DNA of 64,000 nucleotides from Clostridia bacterium. GTDB lineage: Bacteria > Bacillota > Clostridia > RGIG6154. The translations under genes and the position numbers were made by a program. The notes below the pieces were generated by a model. It saw only the letters and a program-made list of their open reading frames with translations, had not been told where the DNA came from and made no database searches. The stretch spans positions 9,192-73,191 of the forward strand of contig JAFQQW010000058.1 of NCBI GenBank assembly GCA_017410375.1, read 5' to 3'. Each line of letters starts with the position of its first letter. Position 1 is the stretch's first letter. This document shows, one piece after another, positions 1,630 through 48,619 of this stretch.

Positions 1630-2808
1630 TTAGCCACCATAACACAAAATTGTACTCACAAAATAGCGGATGTCATCCATCGCGTGGTCTGAAACCTGCA
1701 CCACCGTATCGGTTGTGGCATCGGTGTCCCAGGCATAGGTCTCAAACTCCTTTTTTGTCGCCCTGCAGGCAGGACTGAAGCTTAAATATCCCTGCTCCAA
1801 CAGCGAGGACACCCGCCGAATGCCGTCCAGCACGCGATTTTTGGCTTTGCGCACCGAAAACCTGCCCGAGCGGCGTATCAGTTCGATAAAGGATGCCGCG
1901 GAGGGGTCAACCACCACACACGAAATGGGTCGGTCGCCCGCCAATTCCTCTAACGCCTTGTAATACTCCGCATCGGTCTTTAAGCTTTCTGTGGCTTTGC
2001 CGTCATGATAATACTCCCTGATGCGGTGGGCGTGCTTTCCCACCACCTGCCAAAGCCCCATGGAACACGGGTTTAAAGTCCCGTAATCCACCGAAATGTA
2101 GTAAGGATAGCCTGCGCGCTCTTGGACTTCCCTCACATGCTTTTCGGGGTCGAACATGGGGTACACCAACCCGGATGCAACCACCCAGTCCCCTTCCACA
2201 AACCGTTTGTAAAAGAGTCCGGTATACTCTTTTTTTAAATCGCGAATGTAGTCGGCGGGTAAAAACGTGTTGTCATCTATGTGAAACCGGACAGAAAGCA
2301 AACTTAAATCAGCACGGTCTAAATATTTTTCTTTCAGCCAGTGCCGGGGACTGTCCGGGTTGGTGGTCGCAATCAGCTTTGCGCCTTCTAAGCTCAGGCG
2401 CGAGAGCAACATGGAAAAAAAGCTTTCGGGAAGCAGAGTCAGTTCGTCTAAATAGGCACCGTACAGCGTCATACCGCGGATTTTGCTTTCCGCACCGCTG
2501 TCGCCTGCGCCCTCAAAATATACTTTGCGGTCAAACAGATTTCCGCTCTTTTTGGCAAGGGAGTATGTAAAATGATTTGCCCCTACCATGTTTTGCAGAA
2601 GCTCCAAAGCGTTTCGCTCTAAGGTATTTAAGGTTCGGCCTGCCATTAGAAAGGTGCTCCCTTTGGGCGAGGCGGCAACAAAAAACGCAAACAGAATGAG
2701 CGAAATGTAGGTCTTACCGCTGCGCACCGCCCCCTGCAGGATGTTGATACGCTTCAAGCCCCCTTGTTTGAACAGCTTTAAAAGCTCTGCCTGTTTTTCG
2801 GTTACCAT
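1630..2808 (-). CDS. phage terminase large subunit, PBSX/XtmB-like
   Basis: Walker-A GAVRSGKT near the N-terminus, ATPase then nuclease-like C-terminal half, AGGAGG RBS, followed by the portal-like gene. Confidence 0.8.
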   Translation of the reverse strand: MVTEKQAELLKLFKQGGLKRINILQGAVRSGKTYISLILFAFFVAASPKGSTFLMAGRTLNTLERNALELLQNMVGANHFTYSLAKKSGNLFDRKVYFEGAGDSGAESKIRGMTLYGAYLDELTLLPESFFSMLLSRLSLEGAKLIATTNPDSPRHWLKEKYLDRADLSLLSVRFHIDDNTFLPADYIRDLKKEYTGLFYKRFVEGDWVVASGLVYPMFDPEKHVREVQERAGYPYYISVDYGTLNPCSMGLWQVVGKHAHRIREYYHDGKATESLKTDAEYYKALEELAGDRPISCVVVDPSAASFIELIRRSGRFSVRKAKNRVLDGIRRVSSLLEQGYLSFSPACRATKKEFETYAWDTDATTDTVVQVSDHAMDDIRYFVSTILCYGG

Positions 2809-2811
2809 AGT

Positions 2812-3078
2812 TCACGCCTCCTGCATTGCCTGAATCATCTGTTCAAGCACGGTATTTTCTTCGGACTGTTCTAAACCGCAAAGCCCTAAAATTTCTTTGG
2901 CGGCAGGCACAGACCCTTTCTTTACCGCCAGTTCAAACAGCGATGCTAAGAGCAGTACACCCTTGTCCGTGCGTCGCTTTGTAAGCCCGAAATTCCGCTT
3001 TAAAAACTTGGCTTCCTCCGCCGTCACGTCCTGCCTTAACAGCAGTTCGGTCTCCTTTTTAAAATCATAGCCCTTCAT
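2812..3078 (-). CDS. hypothetical small phage protein (88 aa)
   Basis: ORF between the DNA-binding protein and terL; position would fit a small terminase-associated protein but no motif supports that. Confidence 0.35.
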   Translation of the reverse strand: MKGYDFKKETELLLRQDVTAEEAKFLKRNFGLTKRRTDKGVLLLASLFELAVKKGSVPAAKEILGLCGLEQSEENTVLEQMIQAMQEA

Positions 3079-3653
3079 TTTTTATCAATCCTTTCCGCCA
3101 GAGCCTTCACTCTTTCCCGATGCAGGATTCTTTTGGCTTCGTAGTCATTGTCCCTGCCCGAAAAATTGTTAAATTTGCTTTTTTTAGTACGCGGCGCAAA
3201 GCCGCTTGTTTTGTTATTGTTTAAATTGTTATATTTGTTATTATTGTTATATATAATAGAAGAATTTTCCTCAACGGACCCTGAGCGGACCCTCAACGGT
3301 TCCTGAGGTGGTTTCACACAGGTGATTTTGCTGTAATTTAAAAGGGTTATGAGCAGTCTGCCATTGCCACATGACTGGACCCTCACGGGACTCTCAGGAA
3401 ACTCTGACTCTAAAAAATGCAGAACTTTTTTGAGTGCCGGCTGAGAAACGGTTTGCTTTGAACCGCCTTTGCCCGATTCGCAAATCTCGCAAAGCTCTTT
3501 TTTGGTGGTGTAAAACTGTCCGCGCTCCAAGCCTGAGCCGTCCCGATATGCCGCCTTCATCAGCATATATAGATAAATTTTTAAGTAATAGGGTGGCTTT
3601 TCCCAGATTGCCGACTCCATAATGCCTCTGTCTAAGGGGACAAAACCTTCCAT
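3075..3653 (-). CDS. phage-associated winged-helix DNA-binding protein (possible terminase small subunit or replisome-organiser N-domain-like); start uncertain, alternatives at 3845 and 3950
   Basis: W..PYYLKIYLYMLMKA...G.F..T..EL helix-rich N-terminus, Asn/Lys-rich linker, basic C-terminal helix; GAAAGGA RBS 8 nt before the ATG at 3651-3653. Confidence 0.4.
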   Translation of the reverse strand: MEGFVPLDRGIMESAIWEKPPYYLKIYLYMLMKAAYRDGSGLERGQFYTTKKELCEICESGKGGSKQTVSQPALKKVLHFLESEFPESPVRVQSCGNGRLLITLLNYSKITCVKPPQEPLRVRSGSVEENSSIIYNNNNKYNNLNNNKTSGFAPRTKKSKFNNFSGRDNDYEAKRILHRERVKALAERIDKK

Positions 3654-3667
3654 ATCCCACATCCTTT

Positions 3668-3889
3668 CTAGGGTCTTAAGTAATAGACCTCTTTTAAATA
3701 GAGCCTCTCTTCTGCTTCCAGAGAGTCCAATTTCCGAAGCAGTATTGTTTCGCACATTTTGCATAAAATGCCGTTTGAGGCCGTTTTTTCGCCGCATACG
3801 CAACGTTTCGGCATAGCCTGTCTGATGTTTTCGCCTCGCATACATGTTTCCTTTTTCCTTTCTGCCGAAATGGCAATGTTTTTCGCCAT
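3668..3889 (-). CDS. possible small zinc-ribbon protein (CxC-x11-CxxC); overlaps the alternative N-terminal extension of the previous gene in another frame
   Basis: Motif KRCVCGEKTASNGILCKMCE followed by an amphipathic helix; its ATG is the terminal ATG of a family-A 28-mer repeat. Confidence 0.3.
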   Translation of the reverse strand: MAKNIAISAERKKETCMRGENIRQAMPKRCVCGEKTASNGILCKMCETILLRKLDSLEAEERLYLKEVYYLRP

Positions 3890-3934
3890 ATGCTTTTTTA
3901 TCAGGCTGTTGCTCCTCTTTCGCTCTGCGCCTCC

Positions 3935-3992
3935 AGCTACTCGCTTCCACCTCATCAGTCTCGCTTTGCTCGACAGCTTCTCCTCAAGGGGA
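3935..3992. repeat. degenerate copy of twin-palindrome repeat family B (CTTCTCCTCAAGGGGAAG)
   Basis: Same cacctcatc-[palindrome]-[CTTCCCCTCAAGGGGAAG] order as the copies at 5352, 5697 and 28855. Confidence 0.5.
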
Positions 3993-4194: not shown

Positions 4195-4340
4195 AAAAAA
4201 TAAGCAAGCGGAGCTTGCGTATCGCAAAAAGTATTTCGCAGAAAACTTTTTGCGGAAACGGAGTACCAGACCGAAAAACGAAGTTGTGTTTTTCAAAACG
4301 CAACGAGTAAAAAGGTCTCGGTACGACGTGCTTAAGGTTG
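4195..4340 (+). repeat. repeat family A copy: hairpin GCAAAAAGT-ATTTCGCAGAAA-ACTTTTTGC plus a conserved 3' tail
   Basis: Homologous to 5120-5240, 5450-5560 and 16265-16395. Confidence 0.6.
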
Positions 4341-4392
4341 CTTTCGCAACCGATGCCATTATTATACCACAAAATCCCTAATTTGTCAATAG

Positions 4393-4430
4393 TTTTTGGC
4401 AAAAAAGTTGCGTTATGCAACTTTTTCTTG
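4393..4430 (+). terminator. hairpin AAAAAGTTGCGTTATGCAACTTTTT followed by a T-run
   Basis: 10-bp stem, loop GTTAT, then CTTGTTTTTT. Confidence 0.45.
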
Positions 4431-4486
4431 TTTTTTACACACTTTTTGCCTTTCGCAAAACACTCGCTTGCTTCACAATCCCTTTT

Positions 4487-4735
4487 TTAATAGAGTTTAA
4501 TTTCATATTTTTGAATCAACCGCAAAAGTTTTTCTACTTTTTCGGTGTCGTCCAGTTTTTCACTACGCACAATTTTTTCCACCTTTTCAAAAAACATATT
4601 ATACGCCTCGTTGTATATCTGCTCAAAATCCATGTTCTGCATGGTTCTCCACACCGCATCGCTGATATACGTTTTAATCATACGGTTTGTGATACTTTTC
4701 CGAAAATCTTCTTTATTAAAATACATTTCAGACAT
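4487..4735 (-). CDS. small conserved hypothetical protein (82 aa), paralog of 18609-18857
   Basis: MSEMYFNKEDFRKS...EKLDDTEKVEKLLRLIQKYEIKLY, about 50% identical to the 18609 ORF; AAGGAGG RBS 8 nt before the ATG. Confidence 0.55.
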   Translation of the reverse strand: MSEMYFNKEDFRKSITNRMIKTYISDAVWRTMQNMDFEQIYNEAYNMFFEKVEKIVRSEKLDDTEKVEKLLRLIQKYEIKLY

Positions 4736-4944
4736 TTGTTTGTCCTCCTTAAATAAAAAAAGTGCGCAGCCCGAGAGCCACGCACCAAAAAGACGCAGTG
4801 ACTCCATTCCTACGGTTGCAACACCACATAAACATCATCCCACATAACAGAGGTATGACAAGAATAGAGTGTACGCTTTTTACAAAGATAGCGTACCCTC
4901 TGTTTATGTGGTTTATGTAATTGTTTATGTAATGTTGCATGTTC
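4736..4944 (-). promoter_or_regulatory. structured 5' leader (riboswitch- or attenuator-like) of the small gene, ending in a terminator that abuts the RBS
   Basis: Long-range helix CCACATAAACAGAGG / CCTCTGTTATGTGG; conserved core GCTATCTTTGTAAAAAGCGTAC; block CTGCGTCTTTTTGGTGCG; hairpin GTGCG...CGCAC plus T7; homologous to 18414-18608. Confidence 0.35.
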
Positions 4945-4973
4945 AGTATATCATACTTTTTTTAATTTATCAA
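4945..4973 (-). promoter_or_regulatory. sigma-A-like promoter TTGATA-17-TATACT for the leader and small gene
   Basis: -35 at 4968-4973 and -10 at 4945-4950 on the minus strand with a 17-nt spacer. Confidence 0.4.
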
Positions 4974-5119
4974 CCTTTTTTAACAGGAAATTCATTTCTC
5001 TCCCTCCGTCACCGCTCTGCGGTGCCACCTCCCTCGTCAGAGGGAGGCAAAAAAGGCTCCCTTGTGTAAAGGGCGCTGTCGAACAAAGTGAGACTTAAGG
5101 GAGAGAAAATGCGAACGGA

Positions 5120-15957: not shown

Positions 15958-16208
15958 CATTGCATTATAGTATAATAATTGCGACTACAGAAAAAACACT
16001 TCGTGTTTTACATTTATGCAATTATTGTACCACGGAGTGATGAAGCAAGCCGACTACGGCTTGCACTTATGGTATAATAATTGCGACCAAAGAAAAAACA
16101 CTTCGTGTTTTACATTTATGCAATTATTGTACCACGGAGTGATGAAGCAAGCCGACTACGGCTTGCACTTATGGTATAATAATTGCGACCACGGAGTGAT
16201 GACAAAAA
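15958..16208 (+). repeat. tandem direct repeat (about 2.3 x 118 bp), each unit carrying TGGTATAAT and two hairpins
   Basis: The unit TATAATAATTGCGACC...CAAGCCGACTACGGCTTGCACTTATGG recurs at about 15965, 16075 and 16183. Confidence 0.7.
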
Positions 16209-16264
16209 GGCTCCCTCTGACGAGGGAGCTGGCAAACCGCAGGTTTGTCTGAGGGAGAGATAAA

Positions 16265-17453: not shown

Positions 17454-18203
17454 ATGCAGGATTTTGGTTATTATGAATCTATACTTAAAAATTTAGAACA
17501 GGTCAATGCCACCCAGGAAGAAACTATCAAGGCGGCAGGCAAGCTGATGGCAGATGCCATTGCAGAGGACCGTTTAATTCATGTGTACGGCGGTGGCGGT
17601 CACACCACATTGCCGGTGGGTGAAATGTTTTTCCGTGCAGGTGGGCTTTCTTGCATCAACCCCGTTATGGAAACAGGCCTTTCGGTATTCAATCAGGCTT
17701 TAAAATACTTAGAATTAGAGCGCACCGTAAACTACGGCAGCTCTATCATGAAGTATTATGACTTAAAAAAAGACGATGTCTTAATTATTTTCCACAACAT
17801 CGGCATCAACCCTGCCACCATTGATGCGGCTATGGAAGCCAAAAAGCAGGGTGCAAAAATCATTGCGGTTTCATCCTCTTACTGGCAGGACGAAATGCCG
17901 GCTGACCATTTTATCCGTCATCCCAATAAGACAAACCTCTTTGATTATGCAGACGTTTGCATTGACGATTTCAATCCCGTAGGCGATGCGGTGGTTAACG
18001 TGCCGGGTCTTGATACCCCCATCGCGCCCATTTCCAACATTGTGGATTTTTATATCGCACATTTATTGGAAATCGAAACAGTACGCCAGTGCGTAGAACG
18101 TGGCATCACACCGCCCGTGTGGAACAGCGCCAACACCCCCGGCGGTGACGAAAAGAACGCAGGCTATCTTGAAAAATATAAACCCAGAATCAAAATGTTA
18201 TAA
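17454..18203 (+). CDS. SIS (sugar isomerase) domain protein
   Basis: Rossmann-like SIS fold segments (IHVYGGGGH...); translationally coupled to the upstream gene (TAAATG). Confidence 0.65.
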   Translation: MQDFGYYESILKNLEQVNATQEETIKAAGKLMADAIAEDRLIHVYGGGGHTTLPVGEMFFRAGGLSCINPVMETGLSVFNQALKYLELERTVNYGSSIMKYYDLKKDDVLIIFHNIGINPATIDAAMEAKKQGAKIIAVSSSYWQDEMPADHFIRHPNKTNLFDYADVCIDDFNPVGDAVVNVPGLDTPIAPISNIVDFYIAHLLEIETVRQCVERGITPPVWNSANTPGGDEKNAGYLEKYKPRIKML

Positions 18204-18384
18204 TCAAAAAGGAACTCTGTGTTAAACAGAGTTCCTTTTTTTACTTTAATAAAAAATTCCGTAAAATCTTGTGTTACAAAGCAAAAGTATATTAAAAAAT
18301 AGTATTTTGTGCACTTTTTTTAATTTAAGAAGGGGTAAGCAACAGATTCAAAATAGCACTTTAAATAAATTTTAAAGATAAAGG

Positions 18385-18413
18385 TTGCTATTTGCAAAAA
18401 GATATGGTAAAAT
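18385..18413 (+). promoter_or_regulatory. sigma-A-like promoter TTGCTA-17-TAAAAT
   Basis: Hexamers at 18385-18390 and 18408-18413 with a 17-nt spacer, upstream of the structured leader. Confidence 0.4.
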
Positions 18414-18608
18414 AAATACGACCAAACACAAATGAATATTTACTTCCAAGAGAGATATGCTATCTGTAAAAAGCGTACCTCTGCTTCTGTTGTATCTCTC
18501 ATATGGAAGGATATTTTGTGTTTGGTCGCACGTAACGAAGTTGGAGCTCTGCGTTTTTTGGGTGCACACTTCGTTGTGCACTTTTTTTAATTCAAGGAGG
18601 AAAATGAT
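18414..18608 (+). promoter_or_regulatory. structured 5' leader (riboswitch- or attenuator-like) with a terminator/antiterminator, homologous to 4736-4944
   Basis: 14-bp long-range helix CGACCAAACACAAA (18417-18430) / TTTGTGTTTGGTCG (18512-18525); core GCTATCTGTAAAAAGCGTAC; ACGAAGT / ACTTCGT alternative pairing; hairpin GTGCACACTTCGTTGTGCAC plus T7 abutting AAGGAGG. Confidence 0.4.
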
Positions 18609-18857
18609 ATGTCCGGGCAATTCACTGACAGAGAGGATTTTTTCAAAGATGTACGAATGCGCATGATTAAATACTATATAGAAGACTATGTGCAGAACAC
18701 TATGATGCGTATGGATTTCGAGGAAGTTCTGAACAACTCCTTTGATAAATTTTTTAAGACATTGGAAAAAATCATACATAGCGAAAAGTTAGATGACAGC
18801 ACAAAGGTGGAAAAAATCTTAAAGCTAATCCAAAAATATCAGTTAACATTAGATTAA
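18609..18857 (+). CDS. small conserved hypothetical protein (82 aa), paralog of 4487-4735
   Basis: Shares the EKLDD(S/T)xKVEK(I/L)LKLIQKY C-terminus and MDFEE core with its paralog. Confidence 0.55.
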   Translation: MSGQFTDREDFFKDVRMRMIKYYIEDYVQNTMMRMDFEEVLNNSFDKFFKTLEKIIHSEKLDDSTKVEKILKLIQKYQLTLD

Positions 18858-18870
18858 AGCAGATGCTTCT

Positions 18871-18912
18871 GCCGTTAAAAAGGGCTGTAAATTTATTACA
18901 GCCCTTTTTTGG
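18871..18912. terminator. bidirectional terminator AAAGGGCTGTAAATTTATTACAGCCCTTT
   Basis: 10-bp stem with a T-run 3' on plus and an A-run 5'. Confidence 0.6.
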
Positions 18913-19029
18913 GGAATAGGAAAAAATGTTTGGAATGAACGAATCGAACCCCAAAGGGGTATGCCCGCAATTATACAAAGGTATATTGCGGGTTTGATTC
19001 GTTTATAGCAAAAACGCATCAATCAAAAG

Positions 19030-47320: not shown

Positions 47321-48619
47321 TTACCTCCTTTTCAATTTCCGCGTGGTTTTTTGATTAACATAATCTATGATGTAGGGCGAAGCCGGCACCATAAAAAGAA
47401 TACATGTAGGAATGATAAAATTTAACATAACGGGCTGTGCAACATACATAATAAAGAAGATAATATACAAAGCCGTATATTTGCAGTTTAAATTTAATTT
47501 TTCAAACCCCTTTTTGATAGTTTCAGCCATTTTGTAGTAAAAAACACCCATAGCCGCAGTGAACCAAAATCCATATCTTGCCATATCCGAGAACAACTGC
47601 GAATGTTCGTGCACAACATATGTACCGTTGCCCGCCCCCTGATAGTAAGAGCCAACCCCGAGACCATAGGTGTTGAAGAAAGTCTCCAAGTCCCACAGCC
47701 AACGGTCGCTTCGTGCCGCCATATCACCGGTCGCCTCACCGCCAATCAGCGAGCTGCCCATATCATAAACCTTCCAGGATATATAGTGATTTTCAATGTG
47801 TGTTGCCGCTTCCTGTAACCACGCACCAACAACACTTTTAAAAAACAGCAAGAAAGCAAGCGAAAAAATAGTCACCACAAATTTGGTTGCAGGCGTTCTG
47901 TTTTGCAAAATAACCAAAACAGGCGCAAGAAAAGCGCAAACAAAAACAGTACCGGTTGAGCAAATAAGTGCAAGACAAAAACAAATGATAACAATAATCC
48001 AAGCCGCCACTCTCACCCAGCATTTTTTTAAGCATTTGCCTTGTAACATACACAAAAGCATTGTACCGATCAGAATAGAGCAGTAAATATGATGCACATT
48101 ACCGATATTTTTGAAATAGTTTTCCGCTATCATGTCGGTTTGACTTGAAAATTCACGATAGGATGCCGGATTTTCAATAAGACCGAGCAATGTTGTAAAA
48201 AGCGTAAACGCAAATGCAAGAAAAACAACGCACCCCAAAGAACCGAGCGCTTGCTTTTTATCGGTATAATAATAGTAATAGTATACAAGAAATACATACC
48301 ACGGTCCTGCAATCATAATAAACATTTCTGCCGCGTTACCGATACCAAGCAAGGCAAAATATACATATATCCCGATAAAAAGGAATGCCAGCACACCACA
48401 TATTGTTCCGTTAAAAAACCAGTTTGGTCTTAAAAAGTAACTTGTGCAAAACCATCCGCCCATAACGGTTGCCATGATAAGCGTATACAAACCACCCAAA
48501 AGGGGCGCTTGTACAATAGGCACAATCATCAAAAAGATGGATACCATTGCAAAAAAGTAATTGGAAAACAGCCAGAATTTTTCACTGAAATCTGCTTTTC
48601 TTTCCAAATTGTACATCAT
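47321..48619 (-). CDS. wzy: oligosaccharide repeat-unit polymerase, Wzy-like
   Basis: Polytopic membrane protein with one large extracytoplasmic loop, in a wzx-wzy context. Confidence 0.5.
   Translation of the reverse strand: MMYNLERKADFSEKFWLFSNYFFAMVSIFLMIVPIVQAPLLGGLYTLIMATVMGGWFCTSYFLRPNWFFNGTICGVLAFLFIGIYVYFALLGIGNAAEMFIMIAGPWYVFLVYYYYYYTDKKQALGSLGCVVFLAFAFTLFTTLLGLIENPASYREFSSQTDMIAENYFKNIGNVHHIYCSILIGTMLLCMLQGKCLKKCWVRVAAWIIVIICFCLALICSTGTVFVCAFLAPVLVILQNRTPATKFVVTIFSLAFLLFFKSVVGAWLQEAATHIENHYISWKVYDMGSSLIGGEATGDMAARSDRWLWDLETFFNTYGLGVGSYYQGAGNGTYVVHEHSQLFSDMARYGFWFTAAMGVFYYKMAETIKKGFEKLNLNCKYTALYIIFFIMYVAQPVMLNFIIPTCILFMVPASPYIIDYVNQKTTRKLKRR

Follow-up and report, generated by a model that had tools for sequence, protein, structure and literature searches.

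Within the window, by which we mean the whole 64,000-nucleotide stretch of clostridial DNA analyzed here, two genes encoding paralogous 82-aa proteins are each preceded by a promoter, a structured leader, an intrinsic terminator, and a ribosome-binding site (RBS). Copy 1 of this leader and its surroundings consist of the following elements.

18307–18335, plus strand: remnant of a second leader copy upstream of copy 1 (TTGTGCAC, T7, and a degenerate RBS, AAGAAGGGG), aligned with locus L001
18385–18413, plus strand: sigma-A-type promoter, with −35 TTGCTA (18385–18390), 17-nt spacer, −10 TAAAAT (18408–18413), and an extended −10 TG at 18405–18406 (TGgTAAAAT)
18419–18528, plus strand: 5′-terminal hairpin domain, folding at −42.2 kcal/mol
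18419–18432 with 18515–18528, plus strand: outer P1, 14 bp, CGACCAAACACAAA with TTTGTGTTTGGTCG
18443–18458 with 18494–18509, plus strand: inner helix, CTTCCAAGAGAGATAT with ATCTCTCATATGGAAG, broken by an internal loop
18443–18448 with 18504–18509, plus strand: upper P1
18450–18456 with 18494–18500, plus strand: P2 (a:c), GAGAGAT with ATCTCTC
18455–18478, plus strand: P3 apical stem-loop, arms (A)UAUGCU and AGCGUA(C), loop AUCUGUAAAA
18459–18478, plus strand: core motif, GCTATCTGTAAAAAGCGTAC, contained in P3
18468–18477, plus strand: X2, the 3′ half of P3, a strand of the alternative helix X:Y
18479–18486, plus strand: segment b, CUCUGCUU, the first part of the 3′ bulge that separates P3 from P2; pairs with d in conformer 2
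18535–18559, plus strand: segment Y, able to bind either X (the 3′ half of P3 together with b) or the loop and 5′ arm of the terminator
18535–18541, plus strand: antiterminator 5′ strand, ACGAAGU, part of Y
18541–18546, plus strand: segment d, UUGGAG, part of Y, followed by a 3-nt internal loop
18550–18559, plus strand: Y2, UGCGUUUUUU, part of Y
18562–18588, plus strand: leader terminator, GUGCACA / CUUCGU / UGUGCAC (18562–18581) then U7 (18582–18588), −10.1 kcal/mol
18594–18600, plus strand: RBS, AAGGAGG
18609–18857, plus strand: 82-aa ORF including its stop, ATG at 18609
18877–18910, plus strand: terminator of the small ORF, GGGCTGTAA...TTACAGCCC then T6

Copy 2, also referred to as the 4-kb copy, occupies 4401–4973 on the opposite strand.

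4945–4973, minus strand: promoter, TTGATA (4973–4968), 17-nt spacer, TGaTATACT up to 4945
4818–4938, minus strand: hairpin domain, 41 bp, −47.4 kcal/mol
4938 with 4818, minus strand: ends of P1, which begins GCAACAUU at 4938 and closes with GGUGUUGC at 4818
4853–4848, minus strand: P2 3′ strand, CCUCUG, paired with CAGAGG
4896–4871, minus strand: P3
4870–4862, minus strand: segment b
4787–4809, minus strand: segment Y, consisting of d (GAAUGGAGU), internal loop CAC, and UGCGUCUUUUU
4755–4785, minus strand: leader terminator, GUGCGUGGC / UCUCGG / GCUGCGCAC then U7, −15.7 kcal/mol
4750–4744, minus strand: RBS, AAGGAGG
4735–4487, minus strand: paralogous 82-aa ORF, 52% identical to the first
about 4426–4401, minus strand: terminator of the copy 2 ORF

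A first-pass annotation made from the sequence had described copy 1 as a new riboswitch- or attenuator-like leader. Every element it named is present, most of them 2–3 nt downstream of where it placed them: the 14-bp outer helix, given as 18417–18430/18512–18525, is the P1 listed above. The promoter (TTGCTA-17-TAAAAT, to which we add the extended −10 TG), the inner helix with its interruption, and the succession of terminator hairpin, U7, AAGGAGG, and ATG (18562–18609) were read correctly, and the core motif lies at exactly 18459–18478, its sole match in the window at up to three mismatches, where none is expected by chance. A third core-like site, at 48194, falls inside coding sequence and was rejected as a chance match. 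The 201-nt leader of copy 1 folds at −60.1 kcal/mol (z = −4.24), a stability reached by none of 200 dinucleotide-shuffled sequences, and the second leader, which had been proposed at 4736–4944, is real and more stable (minus strand, −76.5 kcal/mol, z = −6.39). Since promoter, structured leader, intrinsic terminator, RBS, and small ORF follow one another in order, the description as a new attenuator-like cis-regulatory leader stands; its riboswitch half found no specific support. The ORF's own terminator makes the copy 1 unit monocistronic. One copy adjoins phage-like genes (DnaD-like, and TerL at 1630–2808), and it too has its own terminator. The annotation had recognized no known riboswitch signature, and the leader matched no catalogued RNA family: Rfam 15 (4227 models, among them T-box, PyrR, the L20 leader, and all riboswitch classes) gave no match at gathering threshold across the whole window, and at E values up to 10 both leaders returned only chance matches far below threshold (e.g., 23.7 bits against a 140-bit threshold).

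We identified 12 copies of the leader, an element of roughly 190 nt, drawn from the window, two GTDB genomes, and ENA, Logan, and NCBI contigs (related MAGs and assemblies). The hosts are a few uncultured gut-type Clostridia. A promoter of the layout TTGnnA, 17 nt, TGnTATACT/TAAAAT/TATAAT precedes each of the 11 copies for which the contig includes the 5′ region; L001up starts at a contig edge and was left out of this count. A strong RBS and an ORF follow 10 of the 12 at a fixed distance, with orientation and promoter-to-RBS distance also constant. Two loci carry tandem copies that lack an ORF (L001:1–175; L018:1–28 plus the following promoter), and that of L001 is intact and directly upstream of a unit. 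Some units are flanked by REP-like GC-rich repeats. Searching the window with a covariance model gave two full copies and no more, at 138.8 bits (4944–4736) and 114.6 bits; both are training sequences of the model, so the 138.8-bit score is expected from the presence of that sequence in the training alignment. The remaining training copies score 95–143 bits, and the only copies outside training are L012, a near-identical duplicate (117 bits), and L016, which is 5′-truncated (60.6 bits). The model also matches weakly at 18200–18320, a further indication of the upstream remnant. Searches with the core motif yielded two true matches and one chance match in GTDB genomes, a single chance match within a coding region in JGI metagenomes, and, for the strict pattern, none in IMG/VR; a relaxed pattern gave 23 matches in IMG/VR, of which none passed the covariance model at E < 0.1. 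BLASTN against phage and plasmid collections returned no real match.

The leader had been tied to the 82-aa family, an association that the additional copies do not bear out: it precedes three unrelated small ORFs, namely the 82-aa family, a Cys-rich 61-aa ORF (L005), and a third, truncated ORF (L006), as well as the ORF-less tandems at L001 and L018. Elsewhere, the Cys-rich family occurs without the leader, with only some 115 nt upstream and a divergent HTH_26 gene. The leader is thus modular. None of the three ORF types received a Pfam, NCBIfam, or PHROG assignment, and no metabolic or transport theme common to them was found. AlphaFold models the 82-aa protein as three helices (pLDDT 79.5), for which a PDB fold search gave no match with E below 1; a Spo0E-like identity, considered on the basis of an SEKLD motif, was dropped, as Pfam gives it no support. 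Locus scans by protein detected no member of the 82-aa family in GTDB genomes or IMG/VR, and only two turned up when 1.84 billion representatives were searched exhaustively with HMMER.

Because MAFFT alignments of the full leaders misaligned P1, we counted pairs in a hand-made structural alignment padded with N (A6). In this alignment, which was built to fit the structures, pairing across hairpin (P1/P2/P3) and terminator holds in 97.7% of cells, and compensatory double changes occur at 17 of the 30 pairs; because the copies derive from a small number of related organisms, however, the cells overstate the number of independent events. The first-pass annotation had named an absence of homologous leaders with compensatory changes as the evidence that would count against it; such leaders exist. 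No shuffle of 500 matched this pairing, and slid controls paired at 20–56%. The outer part of P1 is 98.9% paired (5/8 pairs doubly changed), P2 97.2% (5/6), and the terminator 100% across copies (6/9); these helices also emerge from RNAalifold, with compensation at 23 of 37 pairs. P1 is very stable and variable in length (28–50 bp), and its arms differ among copies yet keep their pairing, G.U pairs included. In the 11 complete copies the hairpin spans 35–53 bp at −40 to −53 kcal/mol, and the linkers measure 4–9 nt, uncorrelated with hairpin length. For all but one of the 12 copies, the sense strand gives a better fold than the antisense strand. At the apex, the P3 motif UA(C/U)GCU...AAAAAGCGUA is invariant in all 12, and the outermost P3 pair is G-C in five copies, A-U in two, and A.C in five; invariant positions comprise the P3 stem, the A-run, and CUCU, with variation in the loop's 5′ half and over most of the bulge. 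The −10 box ends 5–6 nt ahead of the first P1 pair, and the 5′ end of the transcript probably lies at the base of the P1 hairpin. One feature expected of an intrinsic-terminator attenuator, a promoter and a GC-rich hairpin with U-tract before an RBS and ORF, kept in homologues, was found here.

The switch originally proposed for copy 1 pairs ACGAAGT (18535–18541) with ACTTCGT (18568–18574) inside the terminator. The two are complementary, but taken by itself their pairing is no better than chance (z = −0.9; 52/300 shuffles), and the best-supported alternative is a helix that had been overlooked, X:Y, in which the 3′ half of P3 and the adjacent bulge pair with the segment immediately preceding the terminator. 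Across the alignment 96% of X:Y cells are paired (slid controls, 42–56%). The duplexes have energies of −17 to −22 kcal/mol and z scores of −2.7 to −6.1 in 12/12 copies, including −17.5 kcal/mol, z = −2.7, and 3/300 shuffles for copy 1 and −20.2 kcal/mol with z = −5.7 for copy 2. Its b:d portion is 93% paired with four pairs doubly changed, as seen in ACUUCGAU/AUCGAAGU of L005 vs. ACUCUAUUC/GAAUGGAGU of the 4-kb copy; in L005, 8–10 bp of b:d are rewritten on both sides. One-sided changes in X:Y, G.U to G-C and U.G to U-A, agree with pairing. The X2:Y2 half is invariant, so covariation provides no test of it. Pairing of c with d in place of b:d proved worse in most copies on inspection of the alignment. 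For subtype-A copies, b:d duplexes are strongest when both strands come from the same locus (−12.0 vs. −7.6 or weaker for the 4-kb copy), and b:d of subtype-B copies is not locus-specific.

Y can alternatively pair with the terminator 5′ arm. This antiterminator can form in all 12 copies (−8.6 to −19.8 kcal/mol, against terminators of −10 to −23.5 kcal/mol) and is modestly supported by statistics: its z score is at or below −2.3 in eight copies (copy 2, −16.0 kcal/mol, z = −2.3) and weak in the other four (copy 1, −0.9; L005, 0.1; L014, −1.2; L010, −1.3). X:Y and the antiterminator compete for Y, and X:Y excludes P3 because the two have a strand in common. We rejected a b:d pseudoknot formed with P1 closed, given linkers of 4–9 nt next to hairpins of 35–53 bp.

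From these sequence comparisons we propose, with a probability of about 0.58, that the leader is a lineage-restricted, multi-copy transcription-attenuation element that works by a relay of overlapping helices. Each unit would be transcribed from its own constitutive-looking sigma-A promoter, and its leader may be parsed 5′ to 3′ into five segments: S0 (the 5′ strands of P2 and P3), X (the A-run of the P3 loop, the P3 3′ arm, and bulge segment b), Y (segment d, the 3-nt loop, and UGCGUUUUUU), and the terminator arms T5′ and T3′. Neighboring segments could pair in turn, giving the hairpin, X:Y, the antiterminator, and the terminator. All helices of this relay occur in 12/12 copies, and P1, P2, the terminator, and b:d are maintained through compensatory changes. 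In state 1, the hairpin would hold X, leaving Y free to pair with T5′ as antiterminator, and RNA polymerase would read into the small ORF; in state 2, X:Y would act as an anti-antiterminator, allowing T5′:T3′ to form and transcription to end at U7. We infer this ON/OFF logic, and likewise that X:Y is incompatible with a closed P1, as the linker appears too short. Nested folding places state 2 15–27 kcal/mol above the minimum free energy structure; the hairpin always wins at equilibrium, and under the model X:Y would consequently have to be reached kinetically or through some factor. A trans-acting factor may set the switch, either at the invariant P3/bulge region or at the 5′ strand of the hairpin, and we consider a protein or RNA a more likely trigger than a small metabolite. 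The units would then constitute a small regulon of unrelated small proteins answering the same signal.

Several other readings of the leader deserve weighing against this one. Were the junction of P2, P3, and the bulge an aptamer, with a metabolite or ion setting the availability of b and X to Y, the leader would represent a new riboswitch class, which would fit a conserved core beside a variable stem, a terminator serving as expression platform, mutually exclusive folds, the absence of an Rfam match, and a tandem arrangement of the kind known for riboswitches and T-boxes (PMC9481103). We judge this unlikely: a closing stem of 28–50 bp (−40 to −53 kcal/mol) lacks the marginal stability of riboswitch aptamers, sequence varies in the 5′ part of the loop and over most of the bulge, three unrelated hypothetical small proteins without a metabolic theme lie downstream, and the distribution is very narrow. 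Invariant nucleotides, moreover, fall mostly in the P3 stem and A-run rather than in a junction pocket, and having two pairing partners explains their invariance with no need for a pocket. A quite unlikely possibility is that the terminated leader, of some 170 nt, is itself the product, a small RNA whose b or Y pairs in trans with sister leaders or other targets, the ORFs being secondary; pairing with nascent leaders would give self-titrating feedback. The steric obstacle that b:d faces in cis when P1 is closed disappears in trans, own-locus b:d is the most stable for subtype-A copies, and ORF-less copies exist. Those copies, however, lie directly upstream of a complete unit and can equally be read as tandem cis elements, 10 of 12 copies do have an RBS and ORF at fixed distance, b:d of subtype B is not locus-specific, and the small RNA would lack a known independent target.

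The leader might also not switch at all, with the hairpin stabilizing the transcript against 5′-end-dependent decay, the terminator acting as a constitutive partial attenuator, and X:Y arising as a by-product of shared motifs. Thermodynamic dominance of the hairpin and the probable position of P1 at the transcript 5′ end are in keeping with this. It is nonetheless improbable in our estimation, as the compensatory changes in b:d indicate selection on a pairing that would be useless in a static structure, and X:Y reaches its low z scores in every copy. That the repeats act as DNA, as a MITE- or REP-like inverted repeat or a prophage regulatory site, we hold to be highly implausible. Several copies per genome, the flanking REP-like repeats, and the phage-like genes beside one copy would suit it, but P1 arms diverge while their pairing persists, the sense strand is the better folder in 11/12 copies, orientation and spacing between promoter and RBS are fixed, searches of IMG/VR, phages, and plasmids gave no match, and the copy beside phage genes carries a terminator of its own. 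MITE/REP-type repeats would be expected as near-identical copies, bounded by terminal inverted repeats, at unrelated sites; the copies here differ throughout P1 and always occupy the interval from promoter to RBS. Leader-peptide attenuation was rejected, since 7 of 12 leaders lack an SD-preceded ORF of at least five codons and none is conserved; the 5′ NUG is accounted for by a U-A pair extending P1, and a leaderless start was likewise rejected. In a scan for antisense promoters we saw only weak 9-of-12 minus-strand matches, none of them in conserved blocks, and inspection revealed no antisense terminator opposite the leader. A bolder version of the relay, in which the five segments form a new riboregulator set by a signal new to attenuators, either a new small-molecule ligand or trans self-titration (exposed b with nascent d), controlling a regulon of orphan small proteins in uncultured Oscillospiraceae-like Clostridia, is one we put forward as speculative and unlikely.

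That the leader is a previously undescribed cis-regulatory RNA family is well supported, and in its architecture it is of a known kind, that of regulated transcription attenuators. Its presence before unrelated small ORFs, sometimes in tandem, suggests that a common signal governs a set of orphan small proteins, and knowing the trigger would reveal the function of these proteins and might bring to light a new RNA-binding regulator or ligand. A relay of four helices with so long a clamp helix would be an unusual attenuator layout, and the conserved double conformation offers precise, testable mutations, with b broken and d compensating.

Among known systems, the infC-rpmI-rplT (L20) leader of B. 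subtilis, a protein-dependent transcription attenuator, resembles the new leader in being some 200 nt long and served by one promoter, and in having a conserved 5′ domain, an intrinsic terminator kept in structure and not in sequence, alternative folds with long-distance pairing backed by covariation, and a trigger that is a macromolecule rather than a metabolite, as we propose here (PMC1865079). The two share no sequence or structure similarity, and Rfam finds none; the L20 5′ domain pairs with the terminator 5′ arm directly, whereas the new leader would insert the X:Y layer before the antiterminator, and the genes downstream encode ribosomal proteins for L20 and other proteins here. PyrR-controlled pyr and trp-type attenuators use chains of anti-antiterminator, antiterminator, and terminator, and the likeness lies in overlapping helices that relay the fate of the most 5′ helix to the terminator. 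Differences are that the new leader has no PyrR binding-loop consensus, Rfam PyrR match, or leader peptide, and that it has five segments, not four, with the first helix clamped by a stem of 28–50 bp. With metabolite riboswitches it shares position, expression platform, conserved core, occasional tandems, and a multi-copy regulon (PMC9481103). Its P1, however, is far too long and stable, evidence of a pocket is absent, and its genes have no common metabolic role. In plasmids of the pT181/pIP501 type, antisense RNA attenuates rep mRNAs, and occupancy of the 5′ region shifts a pre-emptor/antiterminator fold to the terminator. The new leader differs in being chromosomal, without plasmid matches and with no conserved antisense promoter or terminator seen, but the pT181/pIP501 logic is what its gap of 15–27 kcal/mol would require.

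The region at about 18385–18857 reads as the first-pass annotation described it (promoter, fold, core, terminator, ribosome-binding site and open reading frame), with most elements sitting 2–3 nt higher than it had placed them.

Leader units and neighboring genes (window positions)
18385–18390 (TTGCTA), 17-nt spacer, TGgTAAAAT ending at 18413, + strand: sigma-70-type promoter (promoter scan)
18459–18478, + strand: core, GCTATCTGTAAAAAGCGTAC
18562–18581, + strand: leader terminator, with U7 after it
18594–18600, + strand: ribosome-binding site
18609–18857, + strand: 82-aa ORF
4944–4736, − strand: second leader, also named in the first-pass annotation, 5′ of an 82-aa paralogue (52% identical)
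3950–3075, − strand: DnaD-like helicase loader, with an 88-aa ORF next in the run
2808–1630, − strand: terminase large subunit

Folding of the RNA at 18412–18612 yielded −60.1 kcal/mol (z = −4.24), equaled by none of 200 shuffles, as a 110-nt hairpin (18419–18528) followed by more structure. Directly 5′ of this leader lie the last 29 nt of another copy (18307–18335; terminator 3′ arm, U7 and degenerate ribosome-binding site), which are all of it left in the window; its intact, ORF-less counterpart occupies L001:1–175, in a related assembly, directly 5′ of an 18-kb-type leader. A second outside contig begins with a leader-type terminator (L018:1–28) and the next promoter directly after, resembling the L001 tandem. 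Tandem arrangements are known for riboswitches (PMC9481103).

An exact-core scan of GTDB genomes returned two true leaders, in an Oscillospiraceae MAG (L005) and a Eubacteriales MAG (L006), and one chance match. Further copies came from contigs encoding relatives of the 82-aa protein (L009, L010, L011, L014, L015, L016 and L018), and a regular-expression scan added a second copy on L006 and the ORF-less L001 copy, bringing the total to 12, of which 11 are complete or almost complete. With a covariance model trained on these copies, the 64-kb window contained two full leaders and no more, both from the training set, and phage-derived contigs matching a relaxed core pattern contained none; searches of JGI metagenome, phage and plasmid collections yielded no real match. 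As far as these searches show, the leader is restricted to a few related uncultured Clostridia. On L006, inverted copies with the same ORF start lie at both ends of the 5-kb contig (36–290, −; 4791–5045, +), with inner P1 sequences that differ in a compensated manner; the two ends are either paralogous units or the product of an assembly that broke at a repeat.

Folded individually, every copy takes one common shape. A long stem variable in length and sequence (P1) continues into a purine-rich/CUCU helix (P2, strands a:c) and is capped by an invariant stem-loop, (G/A)UA(C/U)GCU - A..GU(A/U)AAAA - AGCGUA(C/U) (P3), with a 3′ bulge (segment b) that starts (A)CUCU. Because MAFFT misaligned P1, we aligned the copies by hand with N padding, and MAFFT left this alignment essentially unchanged. 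Across the counted pairs (P1 outer 8 bp, P2 6, P3 7, terminator 9), hairpin and terminator are paired in 97.7% of cells and 17 of 30 pairs carry two-sided changes, a result reached by 0 of 500 shuffles. On this alignment RNAalifold recovered the same helices and extended P1 to 14 rungs, with 23 of 37 pairs compensated in its fold. These counts lean towards structure because the alignment was fitted by the analyst, and the independent checks on them are the individual folds and the slid controls, which pair 20–56%.

A second pairing is conserved alongside this shape. Segment X, the P3 3′ half plus b (AAAAAGCGUA-C-(A)CUCU...), is complementary to segment Y directly 5′ of the terminator (...GGAG(U)-3 nt-UGCG(U/C)UUUUU), and both sequence subtypes form the duplex with one layout, 10 bp followed by a 1x3 internal loop and another 5–10 bp. 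Pairing holds in 96% of cells (slid controls, 42–56%), and the duplex is worth −17 to −22 kcal/mol; relative to shuffled versions of Y, z ranges from −2.7 to −6.1 across all 12 copies. The half formed by b and d, a segment within Y, shows double changes at 4 pairs, as in ACUUCGAU/AUCGAAGU (L005), ACUCUAUUC/GAAUGGAGU (4-kb copy) and CUCUGA/UCAGAG (L015); the invariant half shows one-sided changes only, each keeping the pairing (G.U to G-C in 4 copies, U.G to U-A in 4). X:Y uses the 3′ arm of P3 and so excludes it. Between P1 and d the linker measures 4–9 nt, against a hairpin of 35–53 bp in complete copies (the two lengths are uncorrelated), and therefore neither X:Y nor b:d by itself should be able to form while P1 is closed. 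The X:Y conformer lies 15–27 kcal/mol above the minimum in nested folding, so that its conservation implies that something prevents or opens the hairpin.

The terminator 5′ arm and loop offer Y an alternative partner (for example GGAGUCAC/GUGGCUCU and CGGAGCU/AGCUUCG), at −8.6 to −19.8 kcal/mol, similar to the terminator itself (−10 to −23.5 kcal/mol). This antiterminator stands out clearly from shuffles in 8 of 12 copies and has weak support in 4, among them the 18-kb copy, in which the ACGAAGU/ACUUCGU pairing of the first-pass annotation is present at z = −0.9.

Both the structure and the potential for switching are solid. The segments would act as a relay, in which the hairpin sequesters X, pairing with X occupies Y, and Y in turn takes up the terminator 5′ arm. 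A formed hairpin would leave Y free for the antiterminator and permit read-through; formation of X:Y would let the terminator form and stop transcription. The invariant P3 and bulge are the obvious candidate site at which a protein or another factor would bind, and the leader anatomy does not favor a small-molecule ligand as the trigger. We retain as a rival an interaction in trans of terminated with nascent leaders, for which the steric conflict would not arise. P1 sequences differ between paralogues within one genome, which makes a shared trans-acting RNA directed at P1 unlikely. The copies share no conserved leader peptide, and the promoter scan revealed no conserved antisense promoter at the leader.

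The leader is modular. It precedes the 82-aa family, as the first-pass annotation held, and also a Cys-rich 61-aa ORF (L005:481–666) and, on L006, a third ORF (MTIENEKKSCCF...) cut off by the contig end. Units are monocistronic, each with its own terminator, and have no recurrent neighbors. The 82-aa protein matches no Pfam, NCBIfam or PHROG family and has few relatives (9 clusters in a 5.8-billion-protein index; 2 hits when 1.84 billion representatives were searched exhaustively); its three-helix model (pLDDT 79.5) matches no PDB fold below E = 1. The Cys-rich family comprises 34 clusters of 56–105 aa that conserve DITGIxLTPGNxGxxCxGNGEHxDxxGxLIECCCDECxY, and no annotation was found for it. 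Among its fetched loci, 7 of 9 include the upstream side; the four members examined outside L005 have an upstream region of only ~115 nt without a leader, and next to each lies a small gene in divergent orientation (HTH_26 in 2/4, an unannotated ORF in 2/4).

Other elements lie near these units. At 18936–19006 (+), between the small-ORF terminator and that of a convergent 1660-aa gene, sits a 70-nt Y-shaped inverted repeat (stem AACGAATCGAACC/GGTTTGATTCGTT around two hairpins; MFE −40.1 kcal/mol, z = −7.2) with no Rfam match and no second copy in the window; it looks like a strain-specific insertion, since the gap from ORF to 1660-aa gene is ~54 nt in L001 versus ~297 nt here. GC-rich REP-like intergenic repeats (CACCTCCCTCGTCAGAGGGAGGC with longer flanks) occur at 5026–5048 (+) and 16209–16231 (−), flank both sides of the L009 leader unit (L009:3500–3650 and 4280–4385) and give rise to spurious ORFs such as 16016–16252. 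The phage-like gene run at 1630–3950 (−), 3′ of the 4-kb unit, is probably not co-transcribed with it, because ~530 nt and a terminator intervene.

The first-pass annotation recognized no known riboswitch signature, and Rfam 15 likewise gave no match anywhere in the window at gathering thresholds and no family for either of the two leaders when E values up to 10 were allowed. Relays through an anti-antiterminator operate in PyrR and trp-type attenuators. Among described mechanisms, the B. subtilis L20 (infC) leader comes closest: it spans ~200 nt, combines a conserved 5′ domain with covariance-supported long-distance pairing, and terminates transcription in response to a protein (PMC1865079). 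The leader described here belongs to none of the L20, PyrR, trp-type or known riboswitch families; attenuator-type regulation itself is already known, and the leader is a new family.
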